A DNA stretch of 64,000 nucleotides from an uncultured Acidobacteriota bacterium (GTDB lineage: Bacteria; Acidobacteriota; Thermoanaerobaculia; Gp7-AA8), in contig CAVUKB010000005.1 of the NCBI GenBank assembly GCA_963741955.1, positions 800,001 through 864,000 of the forward strand. The letters are read 5' to 3'. A program made the position numbers and the translations under genes. Below the pieces are notes generated by a model. It searched no databases and was not told where the DNA came from. It worked only from the letters and a program-made list of their open reading frames with translations. Shown here piece by piece: positions 29,876-50,155 of this stretch (the stretch's first letter is position 1; every line of letters starts with the position of its first letter).

Positions 29876-29977
29876 GCCTAACGTTCAAAGCTCACCGGCT
29901 TCGAGCCGCACGCGACATCCTAGCATCGGCGACGCCGCAACGCGCGGCTCGAAGTCCGGTGCAGCGACAAGTTAGGC
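29876..29977 (-). other. attC
   Basis: GCCTAAC...GTTAGGC, 102 bp. Confidence 0.9.
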
Positions 29978-30460
29978 CACGCCTCCTGGGAGTTCCGTCT
30001 CGGAGGATCCGGCGAGCGCAATCGAAACGGCGGGAAAGGTGTCGCTGGGTTTGAGCTTCGTGGCATTCCACTGAACGTACCTGGCCGCTGCGATGGTGAC
30101 GTGGTCAGGTGCGAGCGTCGCGTCGCGCGGTTGGGCCACCTTAAGGTGCATGGAGAAGCCGTCGGACGCGGTAAAGAAGAGATGAATGCCGAAGCTGATG
30201 ACGTTGACCGACGAGAGGATGAGCGTGGTTCCTGGAGTGTCGGGCGGCGGCGCACCCCACAGCCGAACCTCCACAACGTGATTTCGGAAGCGACCGAGAG
30301 TTCGGGTAAGCGGTAGCCGGGAGGTCGCGAGGCTTGTCGCGAGGAAAAGCAGAGGCAGCGGTGCAAGGACGAAGAAAATCGTTTGCTCCGTCACCAAGCC
30401 GAGCGCCACGGCGGATGCGCCGAGCAGGGAGAAGAGGATGCGAGCAGGTAGTGGACGCAT
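29972..30460 (-). CDS. Cassette: hypothetical membrane-anchored protein
   Basis: ORF fills cassette; stop in attC core. Confidence 0.7.
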   Translation of the reverse strand: MRPLPARILFSLLGASAVALGLVTEQTIFFVLAPLPLLFLATSLATSRLPLTRTLGRFRNHVVEVRLWGAPPPDTPGTTLILSSVNVISFGIHLFFTASDGFSMHLKVAQPRDATLAPDHVTIAAARYVQWNATKLKPSDTFPAVSIALAGSSETELPGGVA

Positions 30461-30488
30461 AGAGGATGCCGCACGAGTCTCCGGCGTG

Positions 30489-30592
30489 GCCTAACGCCAG
30501 CGCTGAGCCGCTTCAACGCGCACGCGCCGCATAAACACGATATCAGAACCTGGTGTTGCGCGTTGAAGGCGGCTCGAGCGCGATTGTTAGCC
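30489..30592 (-). other. attC
   Basis: GCCTAAC...GTTAGCC; duplicated at 37728-37831. Confidence 0.9.
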
Positions 30593-31024
30593 GGCGGCGA
30601 GCAACGCCTCTACAACCCGTCGGCTCTCTGGGGAGACCGCGAGCAGGCCCGTACGGATGTCTTGGCGAGTCAGCTCGAGGAGGCGCCGCTCCTCGGCCGT
30701 GAGCGACGAATACCGTATTCCGATGATACGCAGGTCGGCCTCCACGGTGCGAGATGCAACCGGTGCCGCGCTCGGTGCCACCTTCGCTACATCTCGAGCG
30801 ACCGCGATATCTCTGGCCAAGGTTGCGAAGTTCCGTTCACGAACACTGGATCTTTCGAGAACGATGCCCGTGCCGAGCGAGCACGCGACTCCGATGAGCA
30901 GACCTACGAGAAGACTTCCTCTGGAAATTTGCATTTGCGATCCTTTGCGGATTCGATGGCTTCTCTCCTGCGACGAAGGGCGGAGAAGAAGGTTTCGGCA
31001 AGGAGGCCAGAAGCGGTCGATCAC
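30587..31024 (-). CDS. Cassette: hypothetical protein (copy 2)
   Basis: Near-identical to 37826-38263. Confidence 0.65.
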   Translation of the reverse strand: MIDRFWPPCRNLLLRPSSQERSHRIRKGSQMQISRGSLLVGLLIGVACSLGTGIVLERSSVRERNFATLARDIAVARDVAKVAPSAAPVASRTVEADLRIIGIRYSSLTAEERRLLELTRQDIRTGLLAVSPESRRVVEALLAAG

Positions 31025-31029
31025 CCGCC

Positions 31030-31104
31030 GGCTAACGGCTGGCGTTCTGCCGCGGGGTCCCGAGCGTAGCGAGGGCCCCGTCGGTCAGCAACGCTGATTT
31101 AGCC
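31030..31104 (-). other. attC
   Basis: GGCTAAC...TTTAGCC, 75 bp. Confidence 0.8.
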
Positions 31105-32172
31105 GGCCGATCCTCCGCCTGTGTGCGTTGGACCATCGTCAACGAGGGCACCCACGGCAAGCAGCCACGATGGCAGCGGAACCGAGCAGCCGTGCATGTG
31201 CTGAAAGATCCGCTTCAGTGTTCGAAAGGTCGCCTTCACGCCCTTCTCGAGTTCATCGTGATCCAGATCGTAGACAATGGCAAGTTTGTCTCTGCCGCCA
31301 TACTTCTCGGGAACGGACCACGGCGAGGGATGCATCAGCGCATCCCGAATGTGCTTGGTCTGCATGATCGCCTGGACATCCGCGTCCTGCTCGTCCCATA
31401 GCTCGATACCCGTCAAGATCCGCGGGATTCTGACGAGGCGATCCCGGAATGTTGGGCCTGCATCCTCGACGGTCCTCCGATCCTTTGATGAAAGTTGGCT
31501 CACGCGTTCGCTCTCGAGCTTCTGCAATCTCCACGCGAGCGCGGCGAGGTGTGCTTCCACCAGCGATGAACACGCGACGATGCCCCAGCGACATACGGCG
31601 GCTTGGCGCCGCGCGACGTCTTGACTTTGGACCCAGTCCTTCTTCAGCGTGGGGTCGAACGCACCAGAGAAACGTGCCAATGCTTGGCTGAGCTCGCGCG
31701 CTTCGGCTGTGGCCATCACGATGTCGTTGGCGAAGTGCCATTCGGGATACTGATATCTCAGGCCAAGTAGAGTGATACTGATCGTCGCGTGAAAGGGTCT
31801 TTCTTGGTCTCGCCCCTTGCTCGTTTCTCGGCGGACGGGGGCAAATCGCGCTTCAAAGTCGGACATCGGCATGCGCAAACCAAGAGGGATTCCTGACTTG
31901 ATCTCCTGAAACAGGGCTTCGAAGACCCCTTCCGTTGCGCCAGCAAAGAAGAAGCGACTGAAGCCGACGACCAGTTTTCTCACCCGTTGCTTTGCCGTCG
32001 CCGCTTGCTGTCGCAGACGGTTCCGATCGAGGCGCGCGACATCCGCTGGATCCGTTTCGTGGAGGAAGGCTTCCCAGGTGTCGACCTTTCCGGTGCAGAG
32101 ACGAATGACGGCCTCGACACGGTTCGCCTTCGCAACGATCCGAGCCTCCTGCTGCCTCCCAGTTTCAAGCAT
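31099..32172 (-). CDS. Cassette: hypothetical protein with C-terminal Rx4H (HEPN-like) motif
   Basis: SLVEAHL...IRDALMHP. Confidence 0.65.
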   Translation of the reverse strand: MLETGRQQEARIVAKANRVEAVIRLCTGKVDTWEAFLHETDPADVARLDRNRLRQQAATAKQRVRKLVVGFSRFFFAGATEGVFEALFQEIKSGIPLGLRMPMSDFEARFAPVRRETSKGRDQERPFHATISITLLGLRYQYPEWHFANDIVMATAEARELSQALARFSGAFDPTLKKDWVQSQDVARRQAAVCRWGIVACSSLVEAHLAALAWRLQKLESERVSQLSSKDRRTVEDAGPTFRDRLVRIPRILTGIELWDEQDADVQAIMQTKHIRDALMHPSPWSVPEKYGGRDKLAIVYDLDHDELEKGVKATFRTLKRIFQHMHGCSVPLPSWLLAVGALVDDGPTHTGGGSAG

Positions 32173-32192
32173 CCAATGTGTGTCTCCAGTCC

Positions 32193-32252
32193 GGCTAACG
32201 CTCAGCATCAGCGGCGGCGCGCAGTGCCGTCCGCTGCATGTGTTTGTTGGGC
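32193..32252 (-). other. attC
   Basis: GGCTAAC...GTTGGGC, 60 bp. Confidence 0.9.
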
Positions 32253-32262
32253 AGCGTCTCCG

Positions 32263-32982
32263 TCATGCTCCGGCGACAGACCCGGTACCTACCTTCTCTC
32301 GCCACCTTGAGGTGTCCACGCCTTTCACGAGCAGCCAGAGCATCAACAAGAGTTCCGCCAGAGCGCCGAAGGGCAGAACGTAGGACGACAGTGTGGTGGC
32401 AAGTGGCGGCCATACAAAGGTCAGCCAGCCCACACCGGCACACATCATGAAGACGCCAATGATTCGAGGAAGGAACGATGCTCTGAAGATGAGATAGCCG
32501 ACCAAGAGGTCATATGCCGCAAAAAGCACAAGGGAGATGCTGAATACCTGGGCATACAATTTGAGGCCGAGCAGCGCCGTCATCTGCAACTGCTCCACTT
32601 TGAACGCAACCAACAATTGACTGTCTCCAAGAATGACAAATGGAGCTAGTTGTAGGAGACCGGCAATGATCTGAATGGCACATCCTACGAGACTGAAGAA
32701 CGCCGCGAGCAACGACAAGGTCCGGTTCACCGGTTCAAACAATCTGTAGAAGAGAGCTGTGACGGCTATGTAGATCAAGGTCGCGATGAGGCTAACTGCG
32801 ACACCTGACCGGTACAAAGCCTCATGCGCCAGGATGTTGTTCGCCGTAGCTGCTGCGTCGCTGAGAACCACAAGCCCCTTCGCGAGGAATCCGCCAAGGA
32901 AGGCCATCAGGAAATAGAACAGATACACGACACCGATCGCCCTCGCATTGGGGCATGGCGAACCTTGTTCGATCTGTTCCAT
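32263..32982 (-). CDS. Cassette: DUF4386-like membrane protein
   Basis: DAAATANNILAHE, LFYRLFEPVN, FLPRIIG, ELLLMLWLLVKGV. Confidence 0.8.
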   Translation of the reverse strand: MEQIEQGSPCPNARAIGVVYLFYFLMAFLGGFLAKGLVVLSDAAATANNILAHEALYRSGVAVSLIATLIYIAVTALFYRLFEPVNRTLSLLAAFFSLVGCAIQIIAGLLQLAPFVILGDSQLLVAFKVEQLQMTALLGLKLYAQVFSISLVLFAAYDLLVGYLIFRASFLPRIIGVFMMCAGVGWLTFVWPPLATTLSSYVLPFGALAELLLMLWLLVKGVDTSRWREKVGTGSVAGA

Positions 32983-33021
32983 ACATGAGCCTCCCTGTTT
33001 CACAATGCAGGCTTCGACGCT

Positions 33022-33122
33022 GCCCAACGGTTTGCCGCTGAGCCGCGGCCACCGCACACGGAAGAGTAGCACCTACGAGAACGGTGCAGCGGTGGCCGTC
33101 GGCCCCAGCGGCGGAGTTGGGC
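33022..33122 (-). other. attC
   Basis: GCCCAAC...GTTGGGC, 101 bp. Confidence 0.9.
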
Positions 33123-33130
33123 GGCGCTTT

Positions 33131-34165
33131 TCAGCGGTATCCGCCAGCAGATATGGCGCCGCCCGACAGAACCACAGCCACAGTCTCCGTGAGGTCAATC
33201 CCGCCACGGGAGTTCCTGATGATCACGGCAGGTGTCCAGATGAGACCGGGAATGCTCCACCAGCCGACGAGAGCGGACAGTAGCGAATACTTTAGCCCGG
33301 CGAGCAGCGGCTTCTGGCCCGGTTGGAGCAGAAAGATCTTCGACGGCATCATGAGACCGAGGTAGACGGCGGAGACGGTGTACTGAAACTGAACAAGGCG
33401 TACCCCATTCTTGATCGCTGTGAGCAGGGGCGAAGCCTCGGCTTGACGCTGCACCTGGTCCGGATTATCGCCCATGTTCACCATCAGAAACCGCTTGGCG
33501 TACTCGCGGTTCCACGCGAGAAACTCAAGCCGCGATTTGTCGGCACGCCACTTATCAACAACGAGATACTTTGTGAACTCCGTTGCGTGCTCGCGGCAGA
33601 CCGGAACAAGCCACGAACCACGTTCGTTGAGGCCAGCGCTCATGCGAAAAGGAACGATGGTATCTGCGGGGCGCACACAGACAGGACAGGACGCCGGGAA
33701 AGCCACGAGCGCGGAATAGACACCGACACGTAGCCAGCTGTTTTCCGTCGGGTCCAGCATCTCCGCCTTGACAGGCTGGGGCACGACGATTGGTGTTGGC
33801 TTCCAGACAGACGGCTTAACGACCGCTTCTCGTGCTGCCGCTGCCCGCGTCGCCATCTCTGCCAACGCCCGCGCGCCATTCTTGGCCAGAAAAGTGTTGT
33901 ACTTGAAAAACTGCTCGACCTGCTTCCCGTCCGCGGCCGTGTAAGTGACATGGAGAACGTTGCCGTAGACGCGAAGGTCTGCAAGGTACTGATAGTAGAT
34001 TTGGGTCGACCCAATCTCGATGCGGTCTTCAAAGGCAGACACTTGCTGCAGCCGGCGTATCCCACCATAGGAACCGTCGGGAGCCGTTACGAGCATGCCA
34101 GCCGAGAAGAATGGTCGTTGCGCTTCCATCGGGTTCGCGTTGAGATTGCGGTTCCCTCGGATCAT
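33131..34165 (-). CDS. Cassette: hypothetical protein with CxxC...CxxH and C-terminal GWWSIPG...GGIDLT membrane domain
   Basis: ORF fills cassette. Confidence 0.7.
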   Translation of the reverse strand: MIRGNRNLNANPMEAQRPFFSAGMLVTAPDGSYGGIRRLQQVSAFEDRIEIGSTQIYYQYLADLRVYGNVLHVTYTAADGKQVEQFFKYNTFLAKNGARALAEMATRAAAAREAVVKPSVWKPTPIVVPQPVKAEMLDPTENSWLRVGVYSALVAFPASCPVCVRPADTIVPFRMSAGLNERGSWLVPVCREHATEFTKYLVVDKWRADKSRLEFLAWNREYAKRFLMVNMGDNPDQVQRQAEASPLLTAIKNGVRLVQFQYTVSAVYLGLMMPSKIFLLQPGQKPLLAGLKYSLLSALVGWWSIPGLIWTPAVIIRNSRGGIDLTETVAVVLSGGAISAGGYR

Positions 34166-34184
34166 ACCTCGGCGAGCTTGAGCT

Positions 34185-34288
34185 GCCCAACGGCCTGCGG
34201 CTCAGCGGCTTCGGACCGCCCGCGCTGAACGTGCAAACCAGAGTATACAAGGCGGCGGGCCGAAGTCCGCTGGAGCCGTTTGTTAGGT
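34185..34288 (-). other. attC
   Basis: GCCCAAC...GTTAGGT; same family as 38805-38909. Confidence 0.9.
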
Positions 34289-34293
34289 GCGGC

Positions 34294-34641
34294 TCAGGCG
34301 CTGAGCAGGCCAGCCTTGCTCGCGCGGTTGATGTAGACCAGCGTCGCAATTCCGATGATGGTTCCGAGCGGGATGTTCGGGAGCGACAGAATGGCGAGTA
34401 CGATCCCCAGCCACTTCGCCCATTTGCGCTGCGCCTCCACGCCCCGCGGAGTGATGAACGCGAGAACCGCGGTAATGAGAGACATGACGGTTGCAGTCAT
34501 CGCGAACGCCGCAGGCCGATCGGAGTACGCGACGAAGAACAGCGGTATCGCAAGAAGGTTCAAAGCCGCGATGATGTAGAACATCCGGCCGGCCTTCTCG
34601 AGACCCTTCTCGCCCGGGTCTGGGTTTAGTTGTTCAAACAT
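34294..34641 (-). CDS. Cassette: small membrane protein
   Basis: KWAKWLGIVLAILSLPNIPLGTIIG. Confidence 0.75.
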   Translation of the reverse strand: MFEQLNPDPGEKGLEKAGRMFYIIAALNLLAIPLFFVAYSDRPAAFAMTATVMSLITAVLAFITPRGVEAQRKWAKWLGIVLAILSLPNIPLGTIIGIATLVYINRASKAGLLSA

Positions 34642-34647
34642 GTCAGC

Positions 34648-34707
34648 AGCTAACGGTCCGCATCAGCGGCGGCGCGCGGAGCCGTCCGCTGCATGCTGTT
34701 GTTATGC
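34648..34707 (-). other. attC
   Basis: AGCTAAC...GTTATGC, 60 bp. Confidence 0.9.
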
Positions 34708-34710
34708 GGT

Positions 34711-35107
34711 TCATCGCTCAGTGATCGCACTGCTGGCCTCCGCTCTCCTGGCTTCTCGTTCGATGCGATCCTGCTCGAAACTCGACCACGCCTGCAGGTG
34801 GTGCTGGCAAGCGAGGTACAGCTCAATCAGCTTGTCTGCTGGTGCAGCGTCGAGGTACAACGTTCTCAAGCCGCTTGACCAAGGCGTCGCTCAGCCGTGC
34901 CACCTTCGCCGCACTGTCATGTTCGAGACCGTCGCCAAGGGTGGCCCATAAGGAGGCGTACGCCTCAGCCCGACGCCGCTCTCGCGCGTCCTCCCGGCGC
35001 ATGCGTTTCAACTCGAGCCTGTGTTGCACCCAGAGGGACACCAGGGAGCTGACGAGAGCGATCACGGCCCCAAGGATGACGAGCTGAGCTTCGGGCGAGA
35101 GGTTCAC
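34711..35107 (-). pseudogene. Cassette: TM-anchored hypothetical protein, probably frameshifted near 34870
   Basis: ORF 34823-35107; an alternative frame LRTLYLDAAPADKLIELY...TER* runs to the attC edge. Confidence 0.5.
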
Positions 35108-35610
35108 GGCATCTCCCGGTCCGCGGCGTCTGCCTCGGCCGGCGCGGGCAGGATTGCCGCGAGGTCGCCCTCGACGTCGAGCCCGTACCCAGCGGCTAAT
35201 CGCGCTATGTGAACGCCAAAGACGCCTCGCAACTCACCGAGCGCGCCGTTGAACTCCCAGCTCGCCCAATGCCCGCGGTGAGCGCCGAATAGGACGATGT
35301 CCGAACGAGCGCCAACGGTGTTCAAGAACTTGCGACAGCCTGCTCGGAGTGCCCGAAGCGTGTCGGCGAGGTCGGCGCCTGTCCCAAGAGATTGTAGTTC
35401 GGTCGTGAGGAACCGCCGGATCTCCAGGACGGACTGGACGCAATGCTCCGGCACTTCCATCTCGGAGGGGACATAGAGCACCCGTCGGTCTTCGAGGAAC
35501 GTGACAACGCGTCGTGCGACCCGTACTTCGGGCTCAGGAGGATTCCACGAGACCCCGAACACCGGCGAGCTAAGACCGGTCACTCGCGCCAAGATCTCTT
35601 TGAATCGCAC
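35104..35610 (-). CDS. Cassette: DUF6650-like protein
   Basis: FLEDRRVLY...HCVQSVLEIRRFL...ALGELRGVFG; family name from memory. Confidence 0.75.
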   Translation of the reverse strand: MRFKEILARVTGLSSPVFGVSWNPPEPEVRVARRVVTFLEDRRVLYVPSEMEVPEHCVQSVLEIRRFLTTELQSLGTGADLADTLRALRAGCRKFLNTVGARSDIVLFGAHRGHWASWEFNGALGELRGVFGVHIARLAAGYGLDVEGDLAAILPAPAEADAADREMP

Positions 35611-35628
35611 GGCTACCTCCTCCTATCC

Positions 35629-35733
35629 GCATAACGTTCTGAGCTCACCGGCACGAACCGGCGACGTGAAAAAGTATAACGCTCGCGATGCAGCAGCGCG
35701 CCGGTTCGTGCCCGGTGGAGCGCCGAGTTGGGC
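35629..35733 (-). other. attC
   Basis: GCATAAC...GTTGGGC, 105 bp. Confidence 0.9.
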
Positions 35734-35751
35734 GGCGGCACCCGCTGTTCA

Positions 35752-36777
35752 TTACGCCCAGAGCTGTTTCGACAGCTTCCTCACGACCTTCTTGTTCTCG
35801 GACAGTTGTTCTGCGTTCACTTTGACGCGTTGTCCGGCGACGCTGAGCGTACCTGAGCTCATCGTAACGAACGGATTTCCGCGGGCAAATGCAACCACGC
35901 CAGAGGTCTGAAAGTCTCTCACTTCAAACATGCCATCCGCCACATTGGAGAACGTGAAGCTCGCCGGGCTGTCTTTGAGAATTGCTGAAAGATCCTGCGT
36001 GATCCCCGACAGCACTGCCGAATAGCTTTTCGCAGTGTTGATGTACTGCGTGAGACGGTTCTTCGCGACCATGTGAACCTGCGGAAGCTTCAATCCGGCG
36101 TTTTGCATACGCGTATGAAAGTTGTGCTGAGCGTACACTTCGGACGGCAACTTCAGTCCGTAGACAAGACTCATCGCATTCTGAATTCCGCGCCGCGAAG
36201 AATCGTCGGCGGTGACCGGCAGAACAAGGCGCTGGCACGCGGCCAAAGCGATCTGCGTGTACATCGAGAAGCTGGGATTCATGTCGACAAAGCAGTAGTC
36301 GAACTCGTCGTTACACGCTTCTAGAAAATCGAGCAGCCAGCTTGCGACTTTCGACCAACTATCGGTGCCGGGAATCTGCGTGTTGGCCAGCGTCGAAACA
36401 GCATTTGCCTGAAGCTCGAGCAGCGGGTCGCCGGCGAGGAGAGTGATGTTGCTCGGACTGGCAGAGTTGAAATCGTGGGGCCGGGACAGGTACCCATGAG
36501 GAGAGATGGCTGAATTGTCGAATGGCTTCGGGAGGCGGGACTGAAAGTACCCGCCTACTGAGGCTCGGCCGGGCTTGCCGTGCAGCGCGAGAAGGTTTTT
36601 TCCACCGCCATTTTCTTGCCCCCCCAGGAAGAGCTCGCTGAGATTCGCCTGCGGACACAGGTCAAGAACCAGAATCCTGTCGTCCGCGTGCTCGGTGGCG
36701 AACGTGCAAATCGTTTGAAAGGCGAGACTTGTTTTCCCCGTTCCGCCTTTGTTGTTCCAATACCCAAGAACGTTCAT
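35752..36777 (-). CDS. Cassette: ParA/MinD family ATPase
   Basis: NNKGGTGKTS deviant Walker A; DLCPQANLS; VDMNPS; GGAGG RBS. Confidence 0.9.
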   Translation of the reverse strand: MNVLGYWNNKGGTGKTSLAFQTICTFATEHADDRILVLDLCPQANLSELFLGGQENGGGKNLLALHGKPGRASVGGYFQSRLPKPFDNSAISPHGYLSRPHDFNSASPSNITLLAGDPLLELQANAVSTLANTQIPGTDSWSKVASWLLDFLEACNDEFDYCFVDMNPSFSMYTQIALAACQRLVLPVTADDSSRRGIQNAMSLVYGLKLPSEVYAQHNFHTRMQNAGLKLPQVHMVAKNRLTQYINTAKSYSAVLSGITQDLSAILKDSPASFTFSNVADGMFEVRDFQTSGVVAFARGNPFVTMSSGTLSVAGQRVKVNAEQLSENKKVVRKLSKQLWA

Positions 36778-36859
36778 ATACTACCTCCGCATGTGATAAC
36801 GCAACATGCGCACGTAGTATTTCAACATCTCGACGTCGTGGGCTCTGGCCTTCCGAGCC

Positions 36860-36952
36860 GTCCAACATTCGCTGCTCAGCGCCTGCGGCCGAGCGCTGAA
36901 CGAAAGCACACCCCAAACGCACCGAGGACGCAGGCCGCTGGAGGCGTTAGCG
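36860..36952 (-). other. attC
   Basis: GTCCAAC...GTTAGCG, 93 bp. Confidence 0.85.
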
Positions 36953-36953
36953 G

Positions 36954-37718
36954 CTAGGCCGACTCCTGCCAGGCTTGCCGCCAAGCGTGAAAGTTGAATG
37001 CCACGTCGTCCTGCCTTAGGGAACGTACGGTGTCGACGATCATCGTTTCAAGATCGCTAATGACAGCCCCGGAGGCGATTGTCCCGACGATCGTTCCGCC
37101 CGTCCCGTCGCCATCCGGCTCGAGATGCCTCCTGTGCCATTCGAAGCGTGAGGTGATCACGTTAGTGAAGTACTCATCCGCCCCCTGTGAACCGAAGTGC
37201 TCAGGTGGGTAAAACGACGCCAACGCGACTAGAAATGAATGAAGTGTGCGAATGAGAGCATAGCTTGCATTCATCGTGTCGGCAGTTACTCCACTGTCCC
37301 AACCTTTTTGCGCTTCGCCGTACGCGGCGGCTCGCTGTGCTGGAAGAGAATCTATGTAGGCCGTTTCAGAAGACCCTCTTCCTTGTGCGACCTCGTGTTT
37401 CTCTCCGCCGCGCGACTCCTTTTCGATTTGCAACGGAGCTTTGCGCCGTCGATCCACCGCGGCGTACCAATCCTCGCGATAGAGCGTGATCTGGTGCGCA
37501 TCGAGTTTCCGATCGAACCCACCACGGATTTGAGTGTCGCGATGGCAATCGAAACAAAGAACAGCCAGGTTTTCCTCGGCGTGATTAGTCGGATTTTCAT
37601 CGACGTGATGCAGTTGGACCGGTCGTCCACGTTCACGACACACGCAGCAGATTCGATCCGATCGAAAGAGGACTCGAGCAGCGATATCGGACGGGATGTT
37701 CGTGCGATCCTTCGCCAT
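36954..37718 (-). CDS. Cassette: HNH endonuclease-domain protein
   Basis: CCVC...QLHHVDENPTN...NLAVLCFDCH. Confidence 0.85.
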   Translation of the reverse strand: MAKDRTNIPSDIAARVLFRSDRICCVCRERGRPVQLHHVDENPTNHAEENLAVLCFDCHRDTQIRGGFDRKLDAHQITLYREDWYAAVDRRRKAPLQIEKESRGGEKHEVAQGRGSSETAYIDSLPAQRAAAYGEAQKGWDSGVTADTMNASYALIRTLHSFLVALASFYPPEHFGSQGADEYFTNVITSRFEWHRRHLEPDGDGTGGTIVGTIASGAVISDLETMIVDTVRSLRQDDVAFNFHAWRQAWQESA

Positions 37719-37727
37719 GTCGTTGCC

Positions 37728-37831
37728 GCCCAACGCCAGCGCTGAGCCGCTTCAACGCGCACGCGCCGCATAAACACGATATCAGAACCTGGTGTTGCGC
37801 GTTGAAGGCGGCTCGAGCGCGATAGTTAGCC
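37728..37831 (-). other. attC
   Basis: GCCCAAC...GTTAGCC; duplicate of 30489-30592. Confidence 0.9.
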
Positions 37832-41946: not shown

Positions 41947-41954
41947 GGTTCCTG

Positions 41955-42632: not shown

Positions 42633-42639
42633 CAGAACC

Positions 42640-42744
42640 GCCTAACGGATAGCGCTAAGCCGCCTCAACGCGCCCGCGCTACCCCAGCAGGTTACCAAAA
42701 TTTTGAGCGGCGCGTTGAGGTCGGCTTGAGCGCGATAGTTAGGT
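42640..42744 (-). other. attC
   Basis: GCCTAAC...GTTAGGT. Confidence 0.9.
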
Positions 42745-43302
42745 GGCGCCGGGACGATACTCATAGATGAAATCGTAGTCATGTGAGGTTGCAAGCAAAG
42801 GGAATGAGAGCAAGCCCATCATCGGAGCACTGGCTTGGATGAGTTGCTGAAACCTCACCACCACCAGCAGCGACGCGTAGTCGGCTGCCTCTCGGTTCTT
42901 CTTGTCTTTGAAGGCGCGGGACGCGTAGACCTTTTGAAGTCGTTCCATTCCGGTGAGAGTGACATCTCGGAACGGAGGAGTGTCCCATTCGGCAATCCAG
43001 TCAAACTCGCCCACACCGCCATACTTGCGATATCCGAATAGCTCGAAGAACCACCTCTTTGGGTTGATATCAAATCCGTTGGTTTCCGTGTAAACCGCTG
43101 CCAAAGTCTGGTCACGCCGGATGAAGCGGTCAAAATGCTCCGCCACCTGCTCGGGTGCGTTCGTGAACCTCATATCCAGCGCGAGATGAAATGGGCCGCT
43201 CGGCTGGCTAGCGAGCGCCGCCGAAACGCGCTTGTCGCATTCGGCCAAATCGCCAGCACGAAGGGAAGGCTCCAGCTCATTCACTAGGTCAAACCATGAC
43301 AT
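42739..43302 (-). CDS. Cassette: hypothetical protein
   Basis: YTETNGFDINP...ATSHDYD; stop in attC core. Confidence 0.75.
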   Translation of the reverse strand: MSWFDLVNELEPSLRAGDLAECDKRVSAALASQPSGPFHLALDMRFTNAPEQVAEHFDRFIRRDQTLAAVYTETNGFDINPKRWFFELFGYRKYGGVGEFDWIAEWDTPPFRDVTLTGMERLQKVYASRAFKDKKNREAADYASLLVVVRFQQLIQASAPMMGLLSFPLLATSHDYDFIYEYRPGAT

Positions 43303-43313
43303 GATGTTTAGCC

Positions 43314-43416
43314 ACCTAACGGACCGCGCTTCACCCGCCCGGGCCCGCAGGGAGACCTTACCACGTTGCGAGCGTGGAACGGCGGGCCCGGGTCGGGTGC
43401 AAGCGCATAGTTAGGG
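43314..43416 (-). other. attC
   Basis: ACCTAAC...GTTAGGG. Confidence 0.9.
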
Positions 43417-43428
43417 CTCGCAGCACAG

Positions 43429-43908
43429 CTACTCCTTGGTTTCAGAGTATCGAACACCGAGTGCCGGACGGAGAAGTGCTGCTGCCTTCGCCGCCTCCTC
43501 TCGACTCGGAAGAACGAAACGGATTGGCTCACCACCGACTGGCAAGATGCGAAGGGAGTTGGCAAACCACAGCCCTTTGGTGTTCTCGAGCCTTCGGATG
43601 GAGTCAAAGAGGATCTCCCGGGAGGCGATGCTCGACGACTTGAATCCGAACGTCTTCTGGGCGTTGATCGCTGCGATAGCATTCTGCGTCTCTTCAAGGG
43701 TTGGCATGCCGGTTTTTGCATGGTCTTTCAGCCCGACGGCCTCGTGGCGACGACCACCGCTGAGAAAAACCGACGGGAGCTGATTGAGCGCGCTCCCTAC
43801 CTTGACGAGGGCGACGCGATCCGGAAATACGAAGAACTGGAAAACGGTGTTCGGGTCAGCGGAGAGAAGCTTGTAGTACTGGGCTCGAAAGACCCCGAGT
43901 GCTTGCAC
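43429..43908 (-). CDS. Cassette: hypothetical protein
   Basis: AGGAGG RBS before GTG start. Confidence 0.7.
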   Translation of the reverse strand: MQALGVFRAQYYKLLSADPNTVFQFFVFPDRVALVKVGSALNQLPSVFLSGGRRHEAVGLKDHAKTGMPTLEETQNAIAAINAQKTFGFKSSSIASREILFDSIRRLENTKGLWFANSLRILPVGGEPIRFVLPSREEAAKAAALLRPALGVRYSETKE

Positions 43909-43968
43909 GAACCAACCTCCTAGTCTCTGGCGGGGGGCCCTCTCGTTCTTTTCGATTGCTCCGGAGAG

Positions 43969-44098
43969 CCCTAACGACTCTTCACATCAGCCGCTCCGGG
44001 CCCAGCGAGCGCGTTGGCAGGAGCGAGAGAGGTGAAGGCTGAGAGATTGTAACCCATGGAACGGCGGGCCCGGAGTCGGCTGCATGTGACAGTTAGCC
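43969..44098 (-). other. attC (130 bp, longest)
   Basis: CCCTAAC...GTTAGCC. Confidence 0.85.
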
Positions 44099-45118
44099 GG
44101 CGCGTTTTCGGCGCTTCTGGGAGAACTTTGCGATTGCGCTCTTGGCAAGCTGAAACAAGGCGGGCCGCCACTGATGCGTCACGTCTTCCTCTTGCAGTAT
44201 CGACGGTGCATGGATCAACGTGCGGTGAATGTACTTGGCGTGGACGAATGAGTTTCGGAACTCATACATGGCTTCGCCCAGGGCCTTCCCTGTTGGTTTA
44301 GATATCAACCCCTTCGCCACGGCCCGAGCAAGGAGCCGTTTCCCAGCGAGACGTTCGACGAGCCGCACGATGGGTGTCTTTTCATCTCGATAGACGAGCG
44401 CTGCGACCTTGCTGAGAAACTCGCGGTCGGTCAATGAAGAGTCCGAGCGCAGGGCGGCAACACCCTTCTGGATTTCAAAGAAGGCGTAGAACTCCAAGAC
44501 TCGATAGAACTGGAGGCAAGCGGACTCATTGGTGTATTCGCGTCTTCCACGCCACAGGAACCGCATTGGCTCAAGGTCCAACGGAACGGCAGCAATGCTG
44601 TCAGGCGGAGCCGCGAGCTCTGGTGCCTCCCAAAACTCCACTGGACCGAAGGGTATCAGGCCGACGGCTTCTAAAGAATGGTCGTCGAGAATGTGGAGTG
44701 TCTTGAGAAGGTAGGCTTCGAGCTGATCTTCCGGGAGACCCTCGATTTGTATGGTGGTCTTGTAGTACTCCCACTCGTCGCCGTGAGCCTTCCGATGGTA
44801 GTCACCTTCGAAAAGCACCATGGCGAGGGGACTCGTGTCGCCAACCAGGACTGTTGCCCCGGGCATTTCAATCTCAGCGCCGTCATCGACCCCGTACACG
44901 AAGAACTCGTGAAAATCCCCGAGGGAGTAACCGTAGTAGCTGTGAAACGTTAGGTTTGGGTTGTGACGAAGCAGGTTCCCCCGTCTTGTTGGGTTGATCA
45001 CGGACGCACGGATCGATCGGCCGGATACATCCCATGTGATGGTGTGAAGGCGGCCGTGCTTCTCTAGGGATAAGCCGGACGGATCATAGGCAGCAAGTTC
45101 GTAGGTCTCCGATACCAT
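44093..45118 (-). CDS. Cassette: hypothetical protein with C-terminal Rx4H (HEPN-like) motif
   Basis: CLQFYRVLEF...MYEFRNSFVHAK. Confidence 0.7.
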   Translation of the reverse strand: MVSETYELAAYDPSGLSLEKHGRLHTITWDVSGRSIRASVINPTRRGNLLRHNPNLTFHSYYGYSLGDFHEFFVYGVDDGAEIEMPGATVLVGDTSPLAMVLFEGDYHRKAHGDEWEYYKTTIQIEGLPEDQLEAYLLKTLHILDDHSLEAVGLIPFGPVEFWEAPELAAPPDSIAAVPLDLEPMRFLWRGRREYTNESACLQFYRVLEFYAFFEIQKGVAALRSDSSLTDREFLSKVAALVYRDEKTPIVRLVERLAGKRLLARAVAKGLISKPTGKALGEAMYEFRNSFVHAKYIHRTLIHAPSILQEEDVTHQWRPALFQLAKSAIAKFSQKRRKRAG

Positions 45119-45157
45119 CTCACGACCTCATCGACCCGTGACAATACCACTGGCGCC

Positions 45158-45262
45158 GGCTAACGTCCCGCGGTTCACGCGCGCGGGCCGCGACGGGAGG
45201 ATTATACAACCTGGAGATGCAGCATGCCGCGGCCCGCGTCGCGTGCAACCGCTAAGTTAGGC
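45158..45262 (-). other. attC
   Basis: GGCTAAC...GTTAGGC; loop contains TATAAT on the minus strand. Confidence 0.9.
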
Positions 45263-45649
45263 CCGCCGGAGGGTCGCGAGCGCGCGTTCCGCCTGTGCAA
45301 ACGTGCGCAGTGTTGAAGCCGGATCGCCGTTGTAGGTTATGAACAGAAGAAGCGAATCGTTGGCGAGCCAATAGCGGCGCCACGCGACACCGAGGTCCTC
45401 GTATGAGGTGCCGAGCCCGTGAAACTCCCCGAAGGTCGCTTCAAAGGGGCGCCCGGTGAGCGCGGCCTGCCGAGTGGCAAGCTCCTCAAGCTCTCCGTTC
45501 GTGATCGGCCCGTTCTCTTTCGATGCGGAGCTGAATTGAAGTGAACCGTCGTTCGTCGCCGGCGTGAGCGTAAGGCACTCCACGTGCTCGGTCACCGTCC
45601 AACCGTCCGGCACGTCCATGAGCCAGTCACTTTCACCTGCGCTTGTCAT
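45257..45649 (-). CDS. Cassette: hypothetical protein
   Basis: VPDGW...GSLQFS...WRRYWL...LFITYN. Confidence 0.7.
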   Translation of the reverse strand: MTSAGESDWLMDVPDGWTVTEHVECLTLTPATNDGSLQFSSASKENGPITNGELEELATRQAALTGRPFEATFGEFHGLGTSYEDLGVAWRRYWLANDSLLLFITYNGDPASTLRTFAQAERALATLRRA

Positions 45650-45655
45650 CAGCGG

Positions 45656-45760
45656 GCCTAACGTGCCGTGGTTCACGCGCGCGAACCGCGACGCGAAGAA
45701 GTATAGCGCTCGCGAGGCAGCAGCGCGCGGTTCGCGTCGCGTGCAACCGCAAAGTTAGCC
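45656..45760 (-). other. attC
   Basis: GCCTAAC...GTTAGCC. Confidence 0.9.
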
Positions 45761-45766
45761 GCGCGA

Positions 45767-46297
45767 CTATGGCTCACAACGGAGACCGCGGAGCGCAAGC
45801 GACTGGCATACACGCTGAACAACAGCGTCTGTGTCGTCCGCGGTGACGAAGTACGTCTCGCCCGCGCGGAGTCGTTCCATGGCCGAGGGGAATGCGAAGA
45901 CTTCAGCGTCGAAGTTGCGGATTGAGCCCTCCAAATAGTAGTCCCACGCCCCGTCGGGGTGCACGATTGTGAACTCGCCGAGCCATGTCCGCAGTTCGCG
46001 CGCTACGGCATGGAGCTTCGGAAATTGCTTCCGCAGAGGCGTAGCCAAGAAGTGAATCTCGCCCGCTGTCCAGAGGATGCCGCGCTTTCTCGCCGGTGCA
46101 AATACGTTCACGATGGGACAGCGCATGGCGTCGATCGCCCCGTCCGATCGGCGTTGTAATTCACCTATCGTGTTGAAGAGAGCGGAAAAGCCCTTGCTGG
46201 TCGGCGAGAGGAGTGGAGCCTCGCGGTGCGCAGTGAACCAGTCGGCGACGAGTTCCGCGTCGTCAGCCACGGCAAGGTAGCGGTAGGTTACTCCCAT
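45767..46297 (-). CDS. Cassette: hypothetical protein
   Basis: ORF fills cassette. Confidence 0.75.
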   Translation of the reverse strand: MGVTYRYLAVADDAELVADWFTAHREAPLLSPTSKGFSALFNTIGELQRRSDGAIDAMRCPIVNVFAPARKRGILWTAGEIHFLATPLRKQFPKLHAVARELRTWLGEFTIVHPDGAWDYYLEGSIRNFDAEVFAFPSAMERLRAGETYFVTADDTDAVVQRVCQSLALRGLRCEP

Positions 46298-46305
46298 ATT
46301 GAAGC

Positions 46306-46383
46306 GGCTAACGTTGCTGCTAACCGGCAGACCGCAGACGGCGAAGCCGGCTGTGGTCTGTCCGGTTGAGCAGCGGGTTAGCC
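46306..46383 (-). other. attC
   Basis: GGCTAAC...GTTAGCC, 78 bp. Confidence 0.9.
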
Positions 46384-46390
46384 GTCAGTT

Positions 46391-47047
46391 TCACGGAACG
46401 ACGGGCGAGGTCTTCTGGCCGCGAGCAGGCCAGATGAAGAGCCCCACCGCTACTACACCGGCCACGAGCAGCCCGAGGTCGGGTTTGACATCCAGGAGAA
46501 AGGCGGCCTGACTACCCACCAAGGACCAAAGGATGGGCACAGTGAGGACTGCGCGCATCTTCGCTCCCGACGCGAGCGCGAGCAAACCGATGGTAAAGAT
46601 GGTGGTTGGACACGGCAGACCAAACGTCGGGAGTTCAGGATACGCGTGCCCAGCAAGCGTGGACCAAACGGGATACGCGACGAGTGCGAAGGCGAGTAGG
46701 AATATCCCGAGAACGGTACGAACGCTCCTGGCAAAGGCAAACTCGATTCGGCGGTGAATCACGCCGTGCCAAGCGAACAGAAGACCTCCGATGATTGACA
46801 GTGCGCCAAACCCGTAAGCCACAGGGTTGATGCGCGCGAAGAACGCCAGGTGGTAGGCTGCACCAAGCCAAACCCAGAGAAAGGTCAAAACGGCTGACAC
46901 TCCCACACTGGACCACGGACGCCGAAGCGCGATGAAGATCACGGCCAGCACTGCAAGCAGAATCAGGAAGACCTGCGCCGGCCAGACGGTGCTGTTGTAC
47001 AGCCTGAAGACGCCAAAGAACTGCTCAGTGGTGAAGGGTAGCTGCAT
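46391..47047 (-). CDS. Cassette: DUF6064-like membrane protein
   Basis: LPFTTEQFFGVF...INPVAYGFG...PTFGLPCPTTIFTIG; family name from memory. Confidence 0.8.
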   Translation of the reverse strand: MQLPFTTEQFFGVFRLYNSTVWPAQVFLILLAVLAVIFIALRRPWSSVGVSAVLTFLWVWLGAAYHLAFFARINPVAYGFGALSIIGGLLFAWHGVIHRRIEFAFARSVRTVLGIFLLAFALVAYPVWSTLAGHAYPELPTFGLPCPTTIFTIGLLALASGAKMRAVLTVPILWSLVGSQAAFLLDVKPDLGLLVAGVVAVGLFIWPARGQKTSPVVP

Positions 47048-47060
47048 GATGGCTCTTGAC

Positions 47061-47164
47061 GGCTAACGTTGCGCGGTTCACCGGCGCGAACCGCGCGCCG
47101 AGACCGCGGCTCTTGCAGGACAGTAAAGCAGCGGTTCGCGTCCGGTGCAACCGTTTTGTTAGGC
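47061..47164 (-). other. attC
   Basis: GGCTAAC...GTTAGGC. Confidence 0.9.
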
Positions 47165-47316
47165 GGCTGGGCCGAACACGCGGTTGATTTGGCGAGCAGC
47201 GTACATGCCGATAACCGTTCCAGCGAGACCAGCTGCCGAAGGAAGAATGGCCGGTGGCATCGCTGCGGCGAAACGACGCATCCGATCGAGTATCGACGAA
47301 TAACACCCGCTAGGCG

Positions 47317-47769
47317 TTATTTCTTCACTGAGGGTACCAACTCTGGGTTGTACTTCTTCCAAACTGCAACGAAGCGATCCGCCGCTCGGCTGCTTGGCCG
47401 CCGGCCGAATCGAAAGGTGTTTTCGTCTCCCCACTGCCAGAGAATTCGGAGCGTCTGTTGGTCCTGAACGACCTTCGCAGCCTTGAGTTCCGTGTACGGA
47501 TTCCCGCGGCTGGTTATTACGGAAGACACAACGATGATTAACTCGGCATCTTCGGGTGTGTCGACGATCGTGAGCGGTGAGGGCTCCGGGAGATCATCGA
47601 GCATCTCCTTCACGATGTTATTGTGAAGTTCCAAGTCGCCGTCAGTGTCGATGAAGATTTTCGTTACACCGTGAAGTTCTTCTTCCTTACCATATTGGAG
47701 AGTTCCGGCGGCTGCCTGAATTGCAAAGAGCAGAGCTACTACCGAAATCAGAGAAACGCGACGACTCAT
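47317..47769 (-). CDS. Cassette: secreted hypothetical protein
   Basis: GAGGAG RBS; signal peptide MSRRVSLISVVALLFAIQAAA. Confidence 0.72.
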   Translation of the reverse strand: MSRRVSLISVVALLFAIQAAAGTLQYGKEEELHGVTKIFIDTDGDLELHNNIVKEMLDDLPEPSPLTIVDTPEDAELIIVVSSVITSRGNPYTELKAAKVVQDQQTLRILWQWGDENTFRFGRRPSSRAADRFVAVWKKYNPELVPSVKK

Positions 47770-47797
47770 CTCCTCGCTCCTGCGCCGTTCAACTGGC

Positions 47798-47897
47798 GCC
47801 TTACACTTCTTGCTCAGCGGCTGCTGCCGAGCGCTGAACCAAACCATACCGCAAACGCACCGTGACCTCAGGCCGCTGGAGACAGCGGGTTATAGGC
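47798..47897 (-). other. attC, degenerate cores
   Basis: GCCTTAC...GTTATAGGC; body resembles 36860 and 50058 sites. Confidence 0.7.
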
Positions 47898-47901
47898 GGC
47901 A

Positions 47902-48372
47902 TCACATCTTTTGAAGGGCGAGACGGCAGAGCCTCTCAACTTCTGCGGCATTTCTGTTTTCCCGGTGCCTACTGAAGGCTCCCTCAAGTTTTCGGAGACT
48001 GTCCGCGACATGAGCACTCCTGAGCGTCGTTTCGCTGCCAAGTAAGTCGCGGATGCACATCGGCGCCTCGTTTTCTCTGAGATACTCATCGTCGATTTCA
48101 GCCATGGCAGCCCACGTACAAAGAACGATGTCGCGCTTCCATGTAGTCTGCTCCTCGACTTTTCGCCAGAAGACATGATGCTTCTGAAGCGAACGTGACG
48201 GGCGATGCTTGGGACAATAAAGTTTGAGAGGCTCGGCTGTGAGGCAAAGCCAGCCCTCCTCGTGAGCTGCAGCAAGGGCCCTTAGAAGGGTGTCTCCAAT
48301 TCCTCCCGCAAAGTCGAGCGCGAGAGGACAACCTTCACTGGAGCATGTCATTCGAAAGCTGGCGATGGTCAC
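47902..48372 (-). CDS. Cassette: hypothetical protein with N-terminal Cys/His cluster
   Basis: CSSEGC...GW...YCPKH. Confidence 0.6.
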   Translation of the reverse strand: MTIASFRMTCSSEGCPLALDFAGGIGDTLLRALAAAHEEGWLCLTAEPLKLYCPKHRPSRSLQKHHVFWRKVEEQTTWKRDIVLCTWAAMAEIDDEYLRENEAPMCIRDLLGSETTLRSAHVADSLRKLEGAFSRHRENRNAAEVERLCRLALQKM

Positions 48373-48391
48373 TTGTGCGACTCCTCATGCC

Positions 48392-48493
48392 GCCTAACGG
48401 CTGTTGCTCAGCCGCCGGAACGCGCCACCAAGAACGAACGAGCTGCGACGACCGTGGGGCGCGTTCCGGTCGGCTGCAGCAACTTAGTTAGGT
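48392..48493 (-). other. attC
   Basis: GCCTAAC...GTTAGGT. Confidence 0.9.
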
Positions 48494-49062
48494 GGCCCGG
48501 CGAGGAGCCGGTAGGAACTGCCCACCTTTTCCCGGCGGATTCGCCCAACCTTCTCAAGCCACGAGCAGAGGTTAGCGAACTCGCGGCCATCCGCGACCCC
48601 AAGCAACGACTTTGCGTCTTTCTGAGCGACCGATCGTTGCGCCTGTATCAGCGCCACAAGTCGGTCGCCCACCAACGCGAGTTCTGCGCGGGCCGAGACG
48701 TCGGCTGCCCAACCTTCCAGCTCTCGCACGGAGCTCAACGCTTGCTGCATCTCACGGAGGCCGGCATGGTCACCGAGTGCCATCAGGACAGGCGCGCCGT
48801 CTCGCACGGCGACGGACTGAGCGATGTCCCAGCTCCCGTACTTTCGTCGCTCGCTGGTTACCACCTGTGCGAAGAGCGGCGTGGTCGCCTTCGCGAGCGC
48901 GGCGACCCGAGCGTATTGCTTCGCCGACTTTGCCTGCAGAATCTGGTCATGGAGGGCGAAGTAGCGATCGACCGAGTTGGAGGGGAGAGGAGAATCTGCA
49001 ACCCGGTCCGGTTCTGCGGTCGCCGCGCTACCTTGAAAAAGCCGTTTGAAGAACGATGTCAT
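48484..49062 (-). CDS. Cassette: hypothetical protein with C-terminal winged-helix-like segment
   Basis: QKDAKSLL...WLEKVGRIRREKVGSSYRL. Confidence 0.7.
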   Translation of the reverse strand: MTSFFKRLFQGSAATAEPDRVADSPLPSNSVDRYFALHDQILQAKSAKQYARVAALAKATTPLFAQVVTSERRKYGSWDIAQSVAVRDGAPVLMALGDHAGLREMQQALSSVRELEGWAADVSARAELALVGDRLVALIQAQRSVAQKDAKSLLGVADGREFANLCSWLEKVGRIRREKVGSSYRLLAGPPN

Positions 49063-49069
49063 TCAGGGT

Positions 49070-49170
49070 ACCTAACGGCCGCGGTTCACCTGCACGGGCA
49101 CGCCCCGCGACCGCAGCTTCATCAGTAATGGTAGCGCGTGCCCGTGTCAGGTGGAACCGCTTTGTTAGGT
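49070..49170 (-). other. attC
   Basis: ACCTAAC...GTTAGGT; near-identical to 49488-49588. Confidence 0.9.
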
Positions 49171-49482
49171 GCGCGATGCGTCTGGCGATGAGAGTGATAC
49201 GGTGACTTCGTCCACCTCGGGGCGAGCGCGAAACCAGGCATCGATTTTTGAGCGTTCACGGTCACCGATGGTCCGAGGGTTAGACTTGAACGTGATCGTG
49301 CCTCTCCACTCGCCCTCGGTTCCTACGGCACTCATCTCCAGATCCGCAGGCCCGAGAACCTCGCAAAAAAACGCGCGCATGGCGAGGCGCTGCTGATCGT
49401 GCGAGTAGTTCGCTTGAGCGCGCCATTGGAAGGTCACGCGTTCAGCACGGCGTTTCAGTTTTTCTCTCACGCGGTTCCGCAC
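49165..49482 (-). CDS. Cassette: small hypothetical protein
   Basis: ORF fills cassette; stop in attC core. Confidence 0.65.
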   Translation of the reverse strand: MRNRVREKLKRRAERVTFQWRAQANYSHDQQRLAMRAFFCEVLGPADLEMSAVGTEGEWRGTITFKSNPRTIGDRERSKIDAWFRARPEVDEVTVSLSSPDASRT

Positions 49483-49487
49483 GAAGC

Positions 49488-49588
49488 ACCTAACGGCCGC
49501 GGTTCACCTGCACGGGCACGCCCGCACACCGCAGCTTCATGGGTAATGGTAGCGCGTGCCCGTGGCAGGTGGAACCGCTTTGTTAGCT
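49488..49588 (-). other. attC
   Basis: ACCTAAC...GTTAGCT. Confidence 0.9.
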
Positions 49589-49593
49589 GCCGT

Positions 49594-50055
49594 ATGCTGA
49601 TGTTGATGAGAGTGGGTGATGTGATTGCAGTTCCTGCAGGCGATGCCGAGCGGGAGTGCCAGGTGCTGTACGTTTCTACATACTTTCGAGACGTTGTGCT
49701 TCTGGGAGTACTCCCGGCCGTGCAGGGCGAGCGTTATGAATTGCTGATCTACACAGCCGCGCTCGCGTCCGTGCGAGCGGGCGACTGGAAAATCGTTGGT
49801 ACGAAAGAACCGTTTGAGCCGGAACTCCTTTCGACGCGAATTGTGGCAACAGACGTCTGGAGAGGCGATGAGAAGCTGCGGCCGGCGAACAGTTCGGATC
49901 GTACATTGCTGCCGACGATGAGAGTGGCGGGACAGGGAGCTGTCGAAAAGATGCTTCAATCTCTGACGGCGAACGACCAGTCAAAGATGCTGATGCTCGC
50001 GCTCGGGGAAACTGCTCGGCTATTGGAAGGCGTTGAGCGAGGGGCGGTCGCTTAG
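49594..50055 (+). CDS. Cassette gene in inverted orientation; Imm26-like immunity protein (tentative)
   Basis: RVGDVIAVP...CQVLY...VRAGDWKIVG; plus-strand ORF fills the cassette. Confidence 0.6.
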   Translation: MLMLMRVGDVIAVPAGDAERECQVLYVSTYFRDVVLLGVLPAVQGERYELLIYTAALASVRAGDWKIVGTKEPFEPELLSTRIVATDVWRGDEKLRPANSSDRTLLPTMRVAGQGAVEKMLQSLTANDQSKMLMLALGETARLLEGVERGAVA

Positions 50056-50057
50056 GC

Positions 50058-50155
50058 AGCTAACGATTTGCTGCTCAGCGGCTGCCGCCGATCGCTGAAC
50101 AAAAGTGTAACGCAAAAGGACCGAGGCGGCAGTCCGCTGTAGCCGCGGGTTAGGC
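50058..50155 (-). other. attC
   Basis: AGCTAAC...GTTAGGC. Confidence 0.9.

Follow-up and report, generated by a model that had tools for sequence, protein, structure and literature searches.

How the genes of a long integron array come to be expressed is the question raised by a 64,000-nucleotide stretch of DNA, hereafter called the window (G000:C5:800001-864000), which derives from the 5.4-Mb, 99% complete genome of an uncultured member of the Acidobacteriota and which carries a chromosomal integron on its minus strand, comprising an integrase gene (intI) and an array of 31 attC recombination sites. In the standard integron model, cassettes are promoterless, their expression falls with distance from the cassette promoter (Pc), and long chromosomal arrays constitute a mostly silent reserve. 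A reading of the window from its sequence alone had noted that most of the long attC sites carry a -10-like hexamer, TAnnnT, in their terminal loop, and had proposed that each such site may act as a mobile promoter for whichever cassette follows. The analysis described here confirms the loop motif, which is strand-specific, enriched and conserved, is limited to a single lineage, and is consistent with the promoter grammar of the host. The idea that the loop motifs are portable promoters, which lack a -35 box and fire into the next cassette, is given an even chance of being correct.

Two approaches served to define the attC sites, i.e., reading by eye and a covariance model (R1) built from 18 sites, which recovers all 31 of them, the weakest two with E-values of 0.44 and 0.0004. 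This combination was preferred to pattern and energy searches, which proved noisy in that strict cores returned 11 candidates and relaxed cores returned many false hairpins. For each attC the R1 score is far higher on the minus than on the plus strand, where the plus strand was matched at all, and the consensus fold (RNAalifold) holds 27 pairs, of which 18 show compensatory changes, together with single-base bulges on the 5' arm. The array agrees with that of a sedentary chromosomal integron in having 31 sites in a single orientation with R''/R' cores (RYYYAAC ... GTTRRRY), paired L boxes, extrahelical bases and a variable loop. This loop, or variable terminal structure (VTS), was taken to be whatever is left over from an anchored alignment of the 5' arm with the reverse-complemented 3' arm. 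This definition replaced the minimum-energy fold, from which the loop was unusable for six sites.

The hexamer is located wholly inside the VTS of 19 of the 23 long attC sites (at least 90 nt), on the minus (cassette) strand, exactly the number that had been claimed. Eighteen of the 19 positions given earlier are exact as the low end of the hexamer, the single correction being that TAGGAT lies at 29922-29917 and not at 29927, while the extended form, TGnTAnnnT, was retrieved at the six sites (6/23) for which it had been noted. Hit rates above those of shuffled loops and of the opposite strand had been named as checks, and both were obtained. Shuffled loops yielded 7-8 sites with a hexamer instead of 19, with a mean of 7.08 and a maximum of 16 for mononucleotide shuffles, and a mean of 7.97 and a maximum of 15 when dinucleotides were preserved; none of the 5000 shuffles of either kind reached 19. 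On the opposite (plus) strand a single site of the 23 carries the hexamer, against 3.3 expected. The loops of the window are T-rich on the cassette strand (T 0.316, A 0.138), and strand skew is a known feature of attC loops (PMC5027507). The shuffles keep the composition of each loop and still remain far below 19, and the excess of the motif therefore goes beyond composition. Furthermore, a T is present at +5 of 21 of the 32 TA dinucleotides of the loops, against its share of all loop bases given above.

Recurrence in related integrons, a further check suggested by the sequence-only reading, was also borne out. R1 matches attC-type sites in 86 of 151 genomes, with that of the window itself and four unpublished ones (G022, G045, G089 and G096) counted in, the latter being used solely in this tally. 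The R1 matches in relatives total approximately 860, and 207 long attC sites (154 + 53) from 28 other genomes were analysed. In 20 array stretches from ten of these genomes, 130 of 154 loops possess the hexamer on the top strand, against 50.5-52.0 in shuffles, none of 1000 of which reached 130, while on the bottom strand 36 loops do so, against 32.6-34.5. In single loci from the 18 further genomes, the corresponding values are 44 of 53 on the top strand (16.5 expected) and six on the bottom strand (8.3 expected), and every one of these 18 loci contains at least one loop hexamer. Elsewhere in the window's genome, eight R1 matches were examined, of which seven were judged to be attC sites, and six of these seven carry the motif (TACCAT, TACAAT twice, TAAATT, TAACTT with TAGAAT, and TACCGT). 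Outside the window, this genome has attC clusters with loop hexamers at G000:C1:392760-394263 (three sites) and G000:C5:486028-490752 (four sites), and no intI was seen beside either of them within the stretches read.

The choice of hexamer was not cherry-picked, as is evident from an unbiased test of three-base gapped words (a dinucleotide, a gap of 0-5 and a base, as well as the reverse order) on 68 loop-cluster representatives from the window and the relatives' 154 attC sites. The word TA...T ranks first (55/68 against 18.9 expected, z 10.7), and the next enriched words, i.e., A...TG, G.TA, TG.T and T..TA, extend it. The flanks, which played no part in the selection of sites, show T at 0.50 in position -3 and G at 0.55 in position -2. 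With hexamers weighted by cluster, TG is found in the extended -10 register of 35%, compared with a baseline of 0.075 for TG, and in register -5 of 22%, which produces TGTGn. Loop stop codons were considered as an explanation of the motif and rejected, as 60% of the hexamers have C or T at position 3.

One may ask whether such a pattern requires a function at all, since it could reflect ancestry from a few attC sequences combined with the pyrimidine-rich top strand of the loops. Related attC families do exist, as loop clusters reach up to 14 members and two sites of the window (37831-37728 and 30592-30489) have an identical VTS, including TGnTATCGT, with outer cores that differ slightly; the T-richness of top-strand loops is also in keeping with this explanation. 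However, composition is fixed in the shuffles, and the excess persists when a single attC per family or cluster is counted, with 13/15 in the window (families judged by eye; 4.8-5.1 in shuffles, none of 5000 reaching it) and 42/54 in the ten-genome set (16.3 expected). This cluster-based count already points to a motif that independent lines of attC have retained or regained more often than they have neutral positions of the loop. Moreover, in the 14 attC families that comprise at least four different loops, the motif columns (T, A and T) changed in 17 of 285 cells (0.060), against 475 in 2733 (0.174) for the other loop columns (Fisher p 7e-8). As the motif columns change about three times less than their neighbours, the motif is under purifying selection and not merely inherited, and a lack of function is considered very improbable.

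The distribution of the motif has a clear limit. In a sister family of the same class, represented by five genomes, none of 31 distinct long attC sites carries TAnnnT on the top strand, against 7.0 expected, the attC sites of this family being mostly 70-76 nt in length. Among attC sites beside the intI genes of many phyla, the hexamer is present in 22 of 47, a count that is not significantly above the 17.4 expected, being attained by 85 of 1000 shuffles. TAnnnT was consequently rejected as a universal property of attC, and the loop motif is a feature of one lineage. The absence of the motif from all 31 sites of the sister family indicates that it is not required for attC recombination, while the finding by R1 of long attC sites without any motif indicates that detection by this model is independent of the motif. 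The arrays of loci L160-L164 (genomes G142, G115 and G118) consist of dense, near-identical attC sites of 70-76 nt, approximately 300-600 bp apart and numbering dozens per 20 kb, and their few sites of 115-118 nt are without TAnnnT. A separate observation concerns contigs L033, L034 and L036, metagenome-assembled genome sequences of Methylobacter/Crenothrix, which harbour a conserved attC family of approximately 89 nt whose loop begins TTATAATGCGGTTTT. On the cassette strand, this sequence places a perfect TATAAT at the 5' margin of the loop in several copies, and it may represent an independent case of a -10 element in an attC loop.

A motif restricted to one lineage is also what would be expected of a co-evolved protein contact, and it could serve recombination or site folding, either as a contact for the integrase of this clade or a host factor, or by tuning loop stability and strand choice. 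A contact may be made on the folded strand, where the motif reads AnnnTAnCA on the recombining bottom strand. The conservation of the motif within attC families would agree with such a role, as would the reported influence of the VTS on recombination frequency and strand selectivity and its strand skew, although the integrase is stated not to bind the VTS (PMC5027507). Against this explanation, the position of the hexamer varies by approximately 40 nt relative to the R' core, which a fixed synapse contact would probably not tolerate. Loop hexamers are spread over the loop thirds (51, 54 and 75) at 35-76 nt from the G of R', and this freedom of position is easier to reconcile with a promoter than with a contact made in the recombination synapse. 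The composition of each loop, skew included, is preserved in the shuffles and leaves the excess unexplained, the long attC sites of the sister family are devoid of the motif, and the TG register, together with the match to tRNA promoters described below, would have to be coincidental. A role in recombination or folding is thus possible, yet rather unlikely.

The promoter grammar of the organism itself was derived from the regions upstream of 43 first-in-cluster tRNA genes of the window's genome. Fourteen of these 43 regions contain a -35 hexamer (at least five of six matches to TTGACA), a spacer of 16-18 nt and TAnnnT, the -10 hexamers including TAGAAT, TACAAT, TAGACT and TAAGCT, while TGnTAnnnT occurs upstream of eight tRNA genes, six of which are without such a -35 hexamer. 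In random 100-nt windows of the genome the frequencies are 0.1% for the two-hexamer form and 0.5% for TGnTAnnnT. Across the genome, TAnnnT occurs 1.6 times and TGnTAnnnT 0.067 times per kb per strand (724 copies of the latter), as compared to 28.5 and 8.1 per kb in the loops of the window and 10.0 per kb for TGnTAnnnT in those of the relatives. Since the tRNA promoters show the same forms, the loop motif corresponds to the organism's own -10 and extended -10 grammar. The loop hexamers, furthermore, display the A at position 2 and the T at position 6 of a sigma70-type -10 element on the strand of the transcribed gene.

The motif lies on the mRNA-sense strand in the unpaired part of a strong hairpin, which would also suit an element that acts in RNA, i.e., a UGnUAnnnU in the folded attC loop of read-through polycistronic transcripts that is a site for processing, a binding protein or ribosome loading and that affects neighbouring cassettes. 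In agreement with this, attC hairpins have been reported to affect translation of the downstream cassette (PMC8876359). On the other hand, the loop motif is not known to match any described RNA motif, no RNA-motif search having been run on the loops, and the exact host -10 and extended -10 pattern would be left unexplained. A role at the RNA level is accordingly judged distinctly unlikely.

Under the favoured promoter reading, the unpaired loop of a long attC of this integron, and of those of its family and order, would carry a -10 element, TAnnnT, extended to TGnTAnnnT in approximately 30% of cases and always placed on the strand that reads toward the R' core and the next cassette. In double-stranded DNA this element, though it lacks a -35, would serve as a binding site for the housekeeping RNA polymerase holoenzyme, which would melt the sole AT-containing, non-palindromic part of the attC, with transcription predicted to start approximately 7 nt downstream; polymerase binding, the transcript starts and their strength are all inferred from the motif. 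Of the attC, the resulting transcript would include just the 3' arm, and it would continue through the leader into the gene of the cassette downstream, the distance from hexamer to start codon being 38-137 nt for open reading frames (ORFs) of at least 100 aa. As only the 3' arm would be present, no attC hairpin, a structure that hampers translation, would form in loop-started transcripts.

If this reading is true, the arrays of an entire clade of soil Acidobacteriota would be transcribed cassette by cassette, and the 25-kb array may be expressed regardless of cassette position. Because an attC travels with its cassette, each insertion of a cassette would equip the one displaced from Pc with a promoter, and shuffling would re-pair promoters with genes. 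The promoter idea is directly testable, in that the three bases of the motif can be mutated without touching the attC arms. Even should it fail, a strand-specific loop motif under strong selection would call for an explanation, given that this region is regarded as having no sequence constraint.

The proposal that attC sites act as mobile promoters finds partial support. It is favoured by the enrichment, the strand bias, the recurrence in relatives, the TG register, the conserved motif columns and the tRNA grammar, and weakened by the missing -35, the infrequency of TGn and the confinement to one lineage. The following points weigh against it. The sequence-only reading had itself cautioned that no good -35 boxes were visible, and both a two-hexamer scan and the upstream profile agree: consensus scans of 27000-51999 paired none of the loop hexamers with a -35 hexamer 16-18 nt upstream, and positions -23 to -18 of the loop profile are C/G-rich, with T at most 0.21 and no TTGACA signal. 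TGn precedes the hexamer at 6/23 sites in the window and 47/154 in the relatives, or 26-31% of sites, and the remaining hexamers would be -10 elements alone, a weak type of promoter in those organisms where it has been studied. Position 5 of the loop hexamers is mainly C (0.41) or A (0.34), whereas A or T dominates in the tRNA set. The motif is missing from 4/23 long attC sites and from all but one of the eight short ones, so that not every cassette would be served. Three sequencing runs match window positions 41000-50999, all of them DNA runs from one study, with no RNA run among them; one of the three may stem from the source sample. With respect to method, R1 was trained on the window's own sites, the loop clusters were built by an ad hoc rule (at least 25% shared 6-mers), and the relatives compared are kin. 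Finally, the Vibrio cassette C7, cloned with its own attC, showed no promoter activity (PMC11014356), from which it follows that attC sites are not promoters in general. The promoter interpretation is, on balance, plausible and testable, though not demonstrated.

A complete two-hexamer promoter at the loop hexamers was rejected, as none has a -35 partner. The two-hexamer scan of 32000-51999 returned one site (34189-34161, extending from the R' end of an attC into the next cassette), against 4.7 in shuffles, and that of 27000-32000 returned one site on the plus strand; neither site uses a loop hexamer. The short attC that does contain TAnnnT (TACGCT, 31068-31063) is located at 31103-31031 on the minus strand and is 73 nt long with an 11-nt loop.

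A more speculative extension of the promoter reading assigns the motif a dual job, whereby the polymerase-sigma complex, in melting the -10 element at the apex of the attC palindrome, would both fire a transcript and nucleate extrusion of the hairpin. In this clade, the excision and reshuffling of cassettes would thereby be coupled to the initiation of transcription nearby, and instead of one operon driven by Pc the array would form a series of mobile sites that are promoters and recombination sites at once. We hold this extension to be a long shot.

With regard to known promoter types, the TGnTAnnnT loops resemble extended -10 promoters, which function without a usable -35, as at the six tRNA genes mentioned above, TGn being known to compensate for a missing -35 in E. 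coli and Bacillus; they differ in that TGn accompanies just the minority of loop hexamers already indicated. Promoters internal to integron arrays have been described for the 5' untranslated regions (UTRs) of cmlA, qac and qnrVC cassettes, for toxin-antitoxin cassettes and for gene-less promoter cassettes of Vibrionaceae superintegrons (PMC8876359, PMC11014356). Such promoters likewise are internal and free expression from its dependence on the distance to Pc (PMC8876359, PMC11014356). They reside, however, in the 5' UTR or the body of the cassette and are individual to it, whereas the candidate element here is inside the attC loop, is common to most long attC sites of the clade, and would act on the neighbouring cassette instead of the one to which it belongs. 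For one Vibrio cassette, F2, transcription starts within an attC have been reported and discussed as possibly spurious (PMC11014356).

Group IIC-attC introns offer another parallel, in that an element at the attC supplies a promoter for the downstream cassette (PMC3001079); that promoter belongs to an inserted intron of approximately 2 kb, while in the present case there is no intron and the attC sequence itself would be responsible. The promoter early stem-loops (PeSLs) of T4-type phages are similar to the loops described here in combining a repeated stem-loop with a sigma70-like promoter between accessory genes, which they shuffle while driving the next gene. They differ in having a terminator stem-loop and a strong, complete promoter beside the hairpin, and in relying on homologous recombination without an integrase (PMC2839356). 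The attC sites of the window do not show the PeSL combination of a terminator stem-loop and a complete strong promoter. A role of attC as an intrinsic terminator was also rejected, as 13 terminator-like sites were found in 32000-51999 against 19.2 in shuffles, two of the 13 falling within attC sites as judged from coordinates. A full-text literature search, with supplementary files outside its scope, did not yield any account of a conserved -10 element located in an attC loop, and a loop-borne -10 element shared by the attC sites of a clade thus appears not to have been described in print.

The coordinates of the attC sites and of the other elements of the integron are compiled in Table 1.

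Table 1. Elements of the integron on the minus strand of the window (window positions; hexamer positions are given in the direction of reading)
Element	Position	Strand	Loop motif and details	Basis
intI, integron integrase	52226..53398	-	390 aa	Translation; NCBIfam TIGR02249, 465.4 bits against a cutoff of 265, residues 11-325
Candidate Pc	52214..52242	-	TTCTCA-17 nt-TACAAT; in 3' end of intI, just upstream of attI core	Consensus scan, 9/12 matches
Candidate attI crossover core	52194..52200	-	GTTAGGG, R'-type core	Read from sequence
Cassette array	27243..51042	-	31 attC sites (23 of at least 90 nt, 8 short)	Reading by eye and covariance model R1
Long attC	50941..51042	-	No TAnnnT in loop (TACTCG instead)	Motif scan
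attC	50058..50155	-	TACACT 50109-50104	Arm alignment, motif scan
attC	49488..49588	-	TACCAT 49551-49546	Arm alignment, motif scan
attC	49070..49170	-	TACCAT 49133-49128	Arm alignment, motif scan
Long attC	48392..48493	-	No TAnnnT in loop	Motif scan
Degenerate attC	47796..47896	-	TATGGT 47848-47843	R1, E 0.44
attC	47061..47164	-	TACTGT 47125-47120	Arm alignment, motif scan
attC	45656..45760	-	TATACT 45705-45700	Arm alignment, motif scan
attC	45158..45262	-	TATAAT 45206-45201; next ORF start 45118	Arm alignment, motif scan
attC, 130 nt	43969..44098	-	TACAAT 44051-44046	Arm alignment, motif scan
attC	43314..43416	-	TGnTAAGGT, hexamer 43360-43355; next ORF start 43302	Arm alignment, motif scan
attC	42640..42744	-	TGnTAACCT, hexamer 42694-42689; next ORF start 42632	Arm alignment, motif scan
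attC	41845..41946	-	TAAACT 41898-41893	Arm alignment, motif scan
attC	38805..38909	-	TATACT 38867-38862	Arm alignment, motif scan
attC	38269..38366	-	TATCCT 38320-38315	Arm alignment, motif scan
attC	37728..37831	-	TGnTATCGT, hexamer 37781-37776	Arm alignment, motif scan
Degenerate long attC	36860..36950	-	No TAnnnT; TGTGCT where relatives show TATCCT or TATGGT	Arm alignment, motif scan
attC	35632..35733	-	TATACT 35678-35673 and TACTTT 35676-35671	Arm alignment, motif scan
attC	34185..34288	-	TATACT 34247-34242 and TACTCT 34245-34240	Arm alignment, motif scan
attC	33022..33122	-	TGnTACTCT, hexamer 33068-33063	Arm alignment, motif scan
attC	30489..30592	-	TGnTATCGT, hexamer 30542-30537	Arm alignment, motif scan
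attC	29876..29977	-	TGnTAGGAT, hexamer 29922-29917	Arm alignment, motif scan
Degenerate long attC	28521..28622	-	No TAnnnT; TACTGG where relative at 47164 shows TACTGT	Arm alignment, TA scan

The TIGR02249 score identifies the product of intI as an integron-type tyrosine recombinase, and the gene is oriented in the same direction as the cassettes. The candidate Pc is the sole site returned by the consensus scan in 51000-54000 (0.8 in shuffles), and the GTTAGGG that may represent the attI crossover core lies 14 nt after its -10 hexamer. The C-terminal tail of the integrase (residues 326-390) extends approximately 65 residues past the end of the integron-integrase profile, and the candidate Pc sits within the sequence encoding this tail.

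Within the array, one cassette is duplicated, at 38268-37728 and 31030-30489 on the minus strand, each copy consisting of an ORF starting MQISRGS and then an attC. A long cassette at 41800-39468, on the same strand, holds two genes with ORFs of 440 and 336 aa, the first of which contains a TSPPY stretch; this stretch is typical of DNA methyltransferases, and the cassette may thus encode a restriction-modification system. Degenerate attC sites in the distal part of the array flank a 62-nt hairpin at 28077-28016, whose 21-bp stem is perfect (-41.9 kcal/mol). A sequencing run labelled as soil metagenome contains 99% of sampled words of the window, and, outside the integron, an Rfam match to the Acido-Lenti-1 RNA, in keeping with an Acidobacteriota origin, was observed at 21400-21444 on the plus strand, with 45.9 bits against a gathering score of 37.

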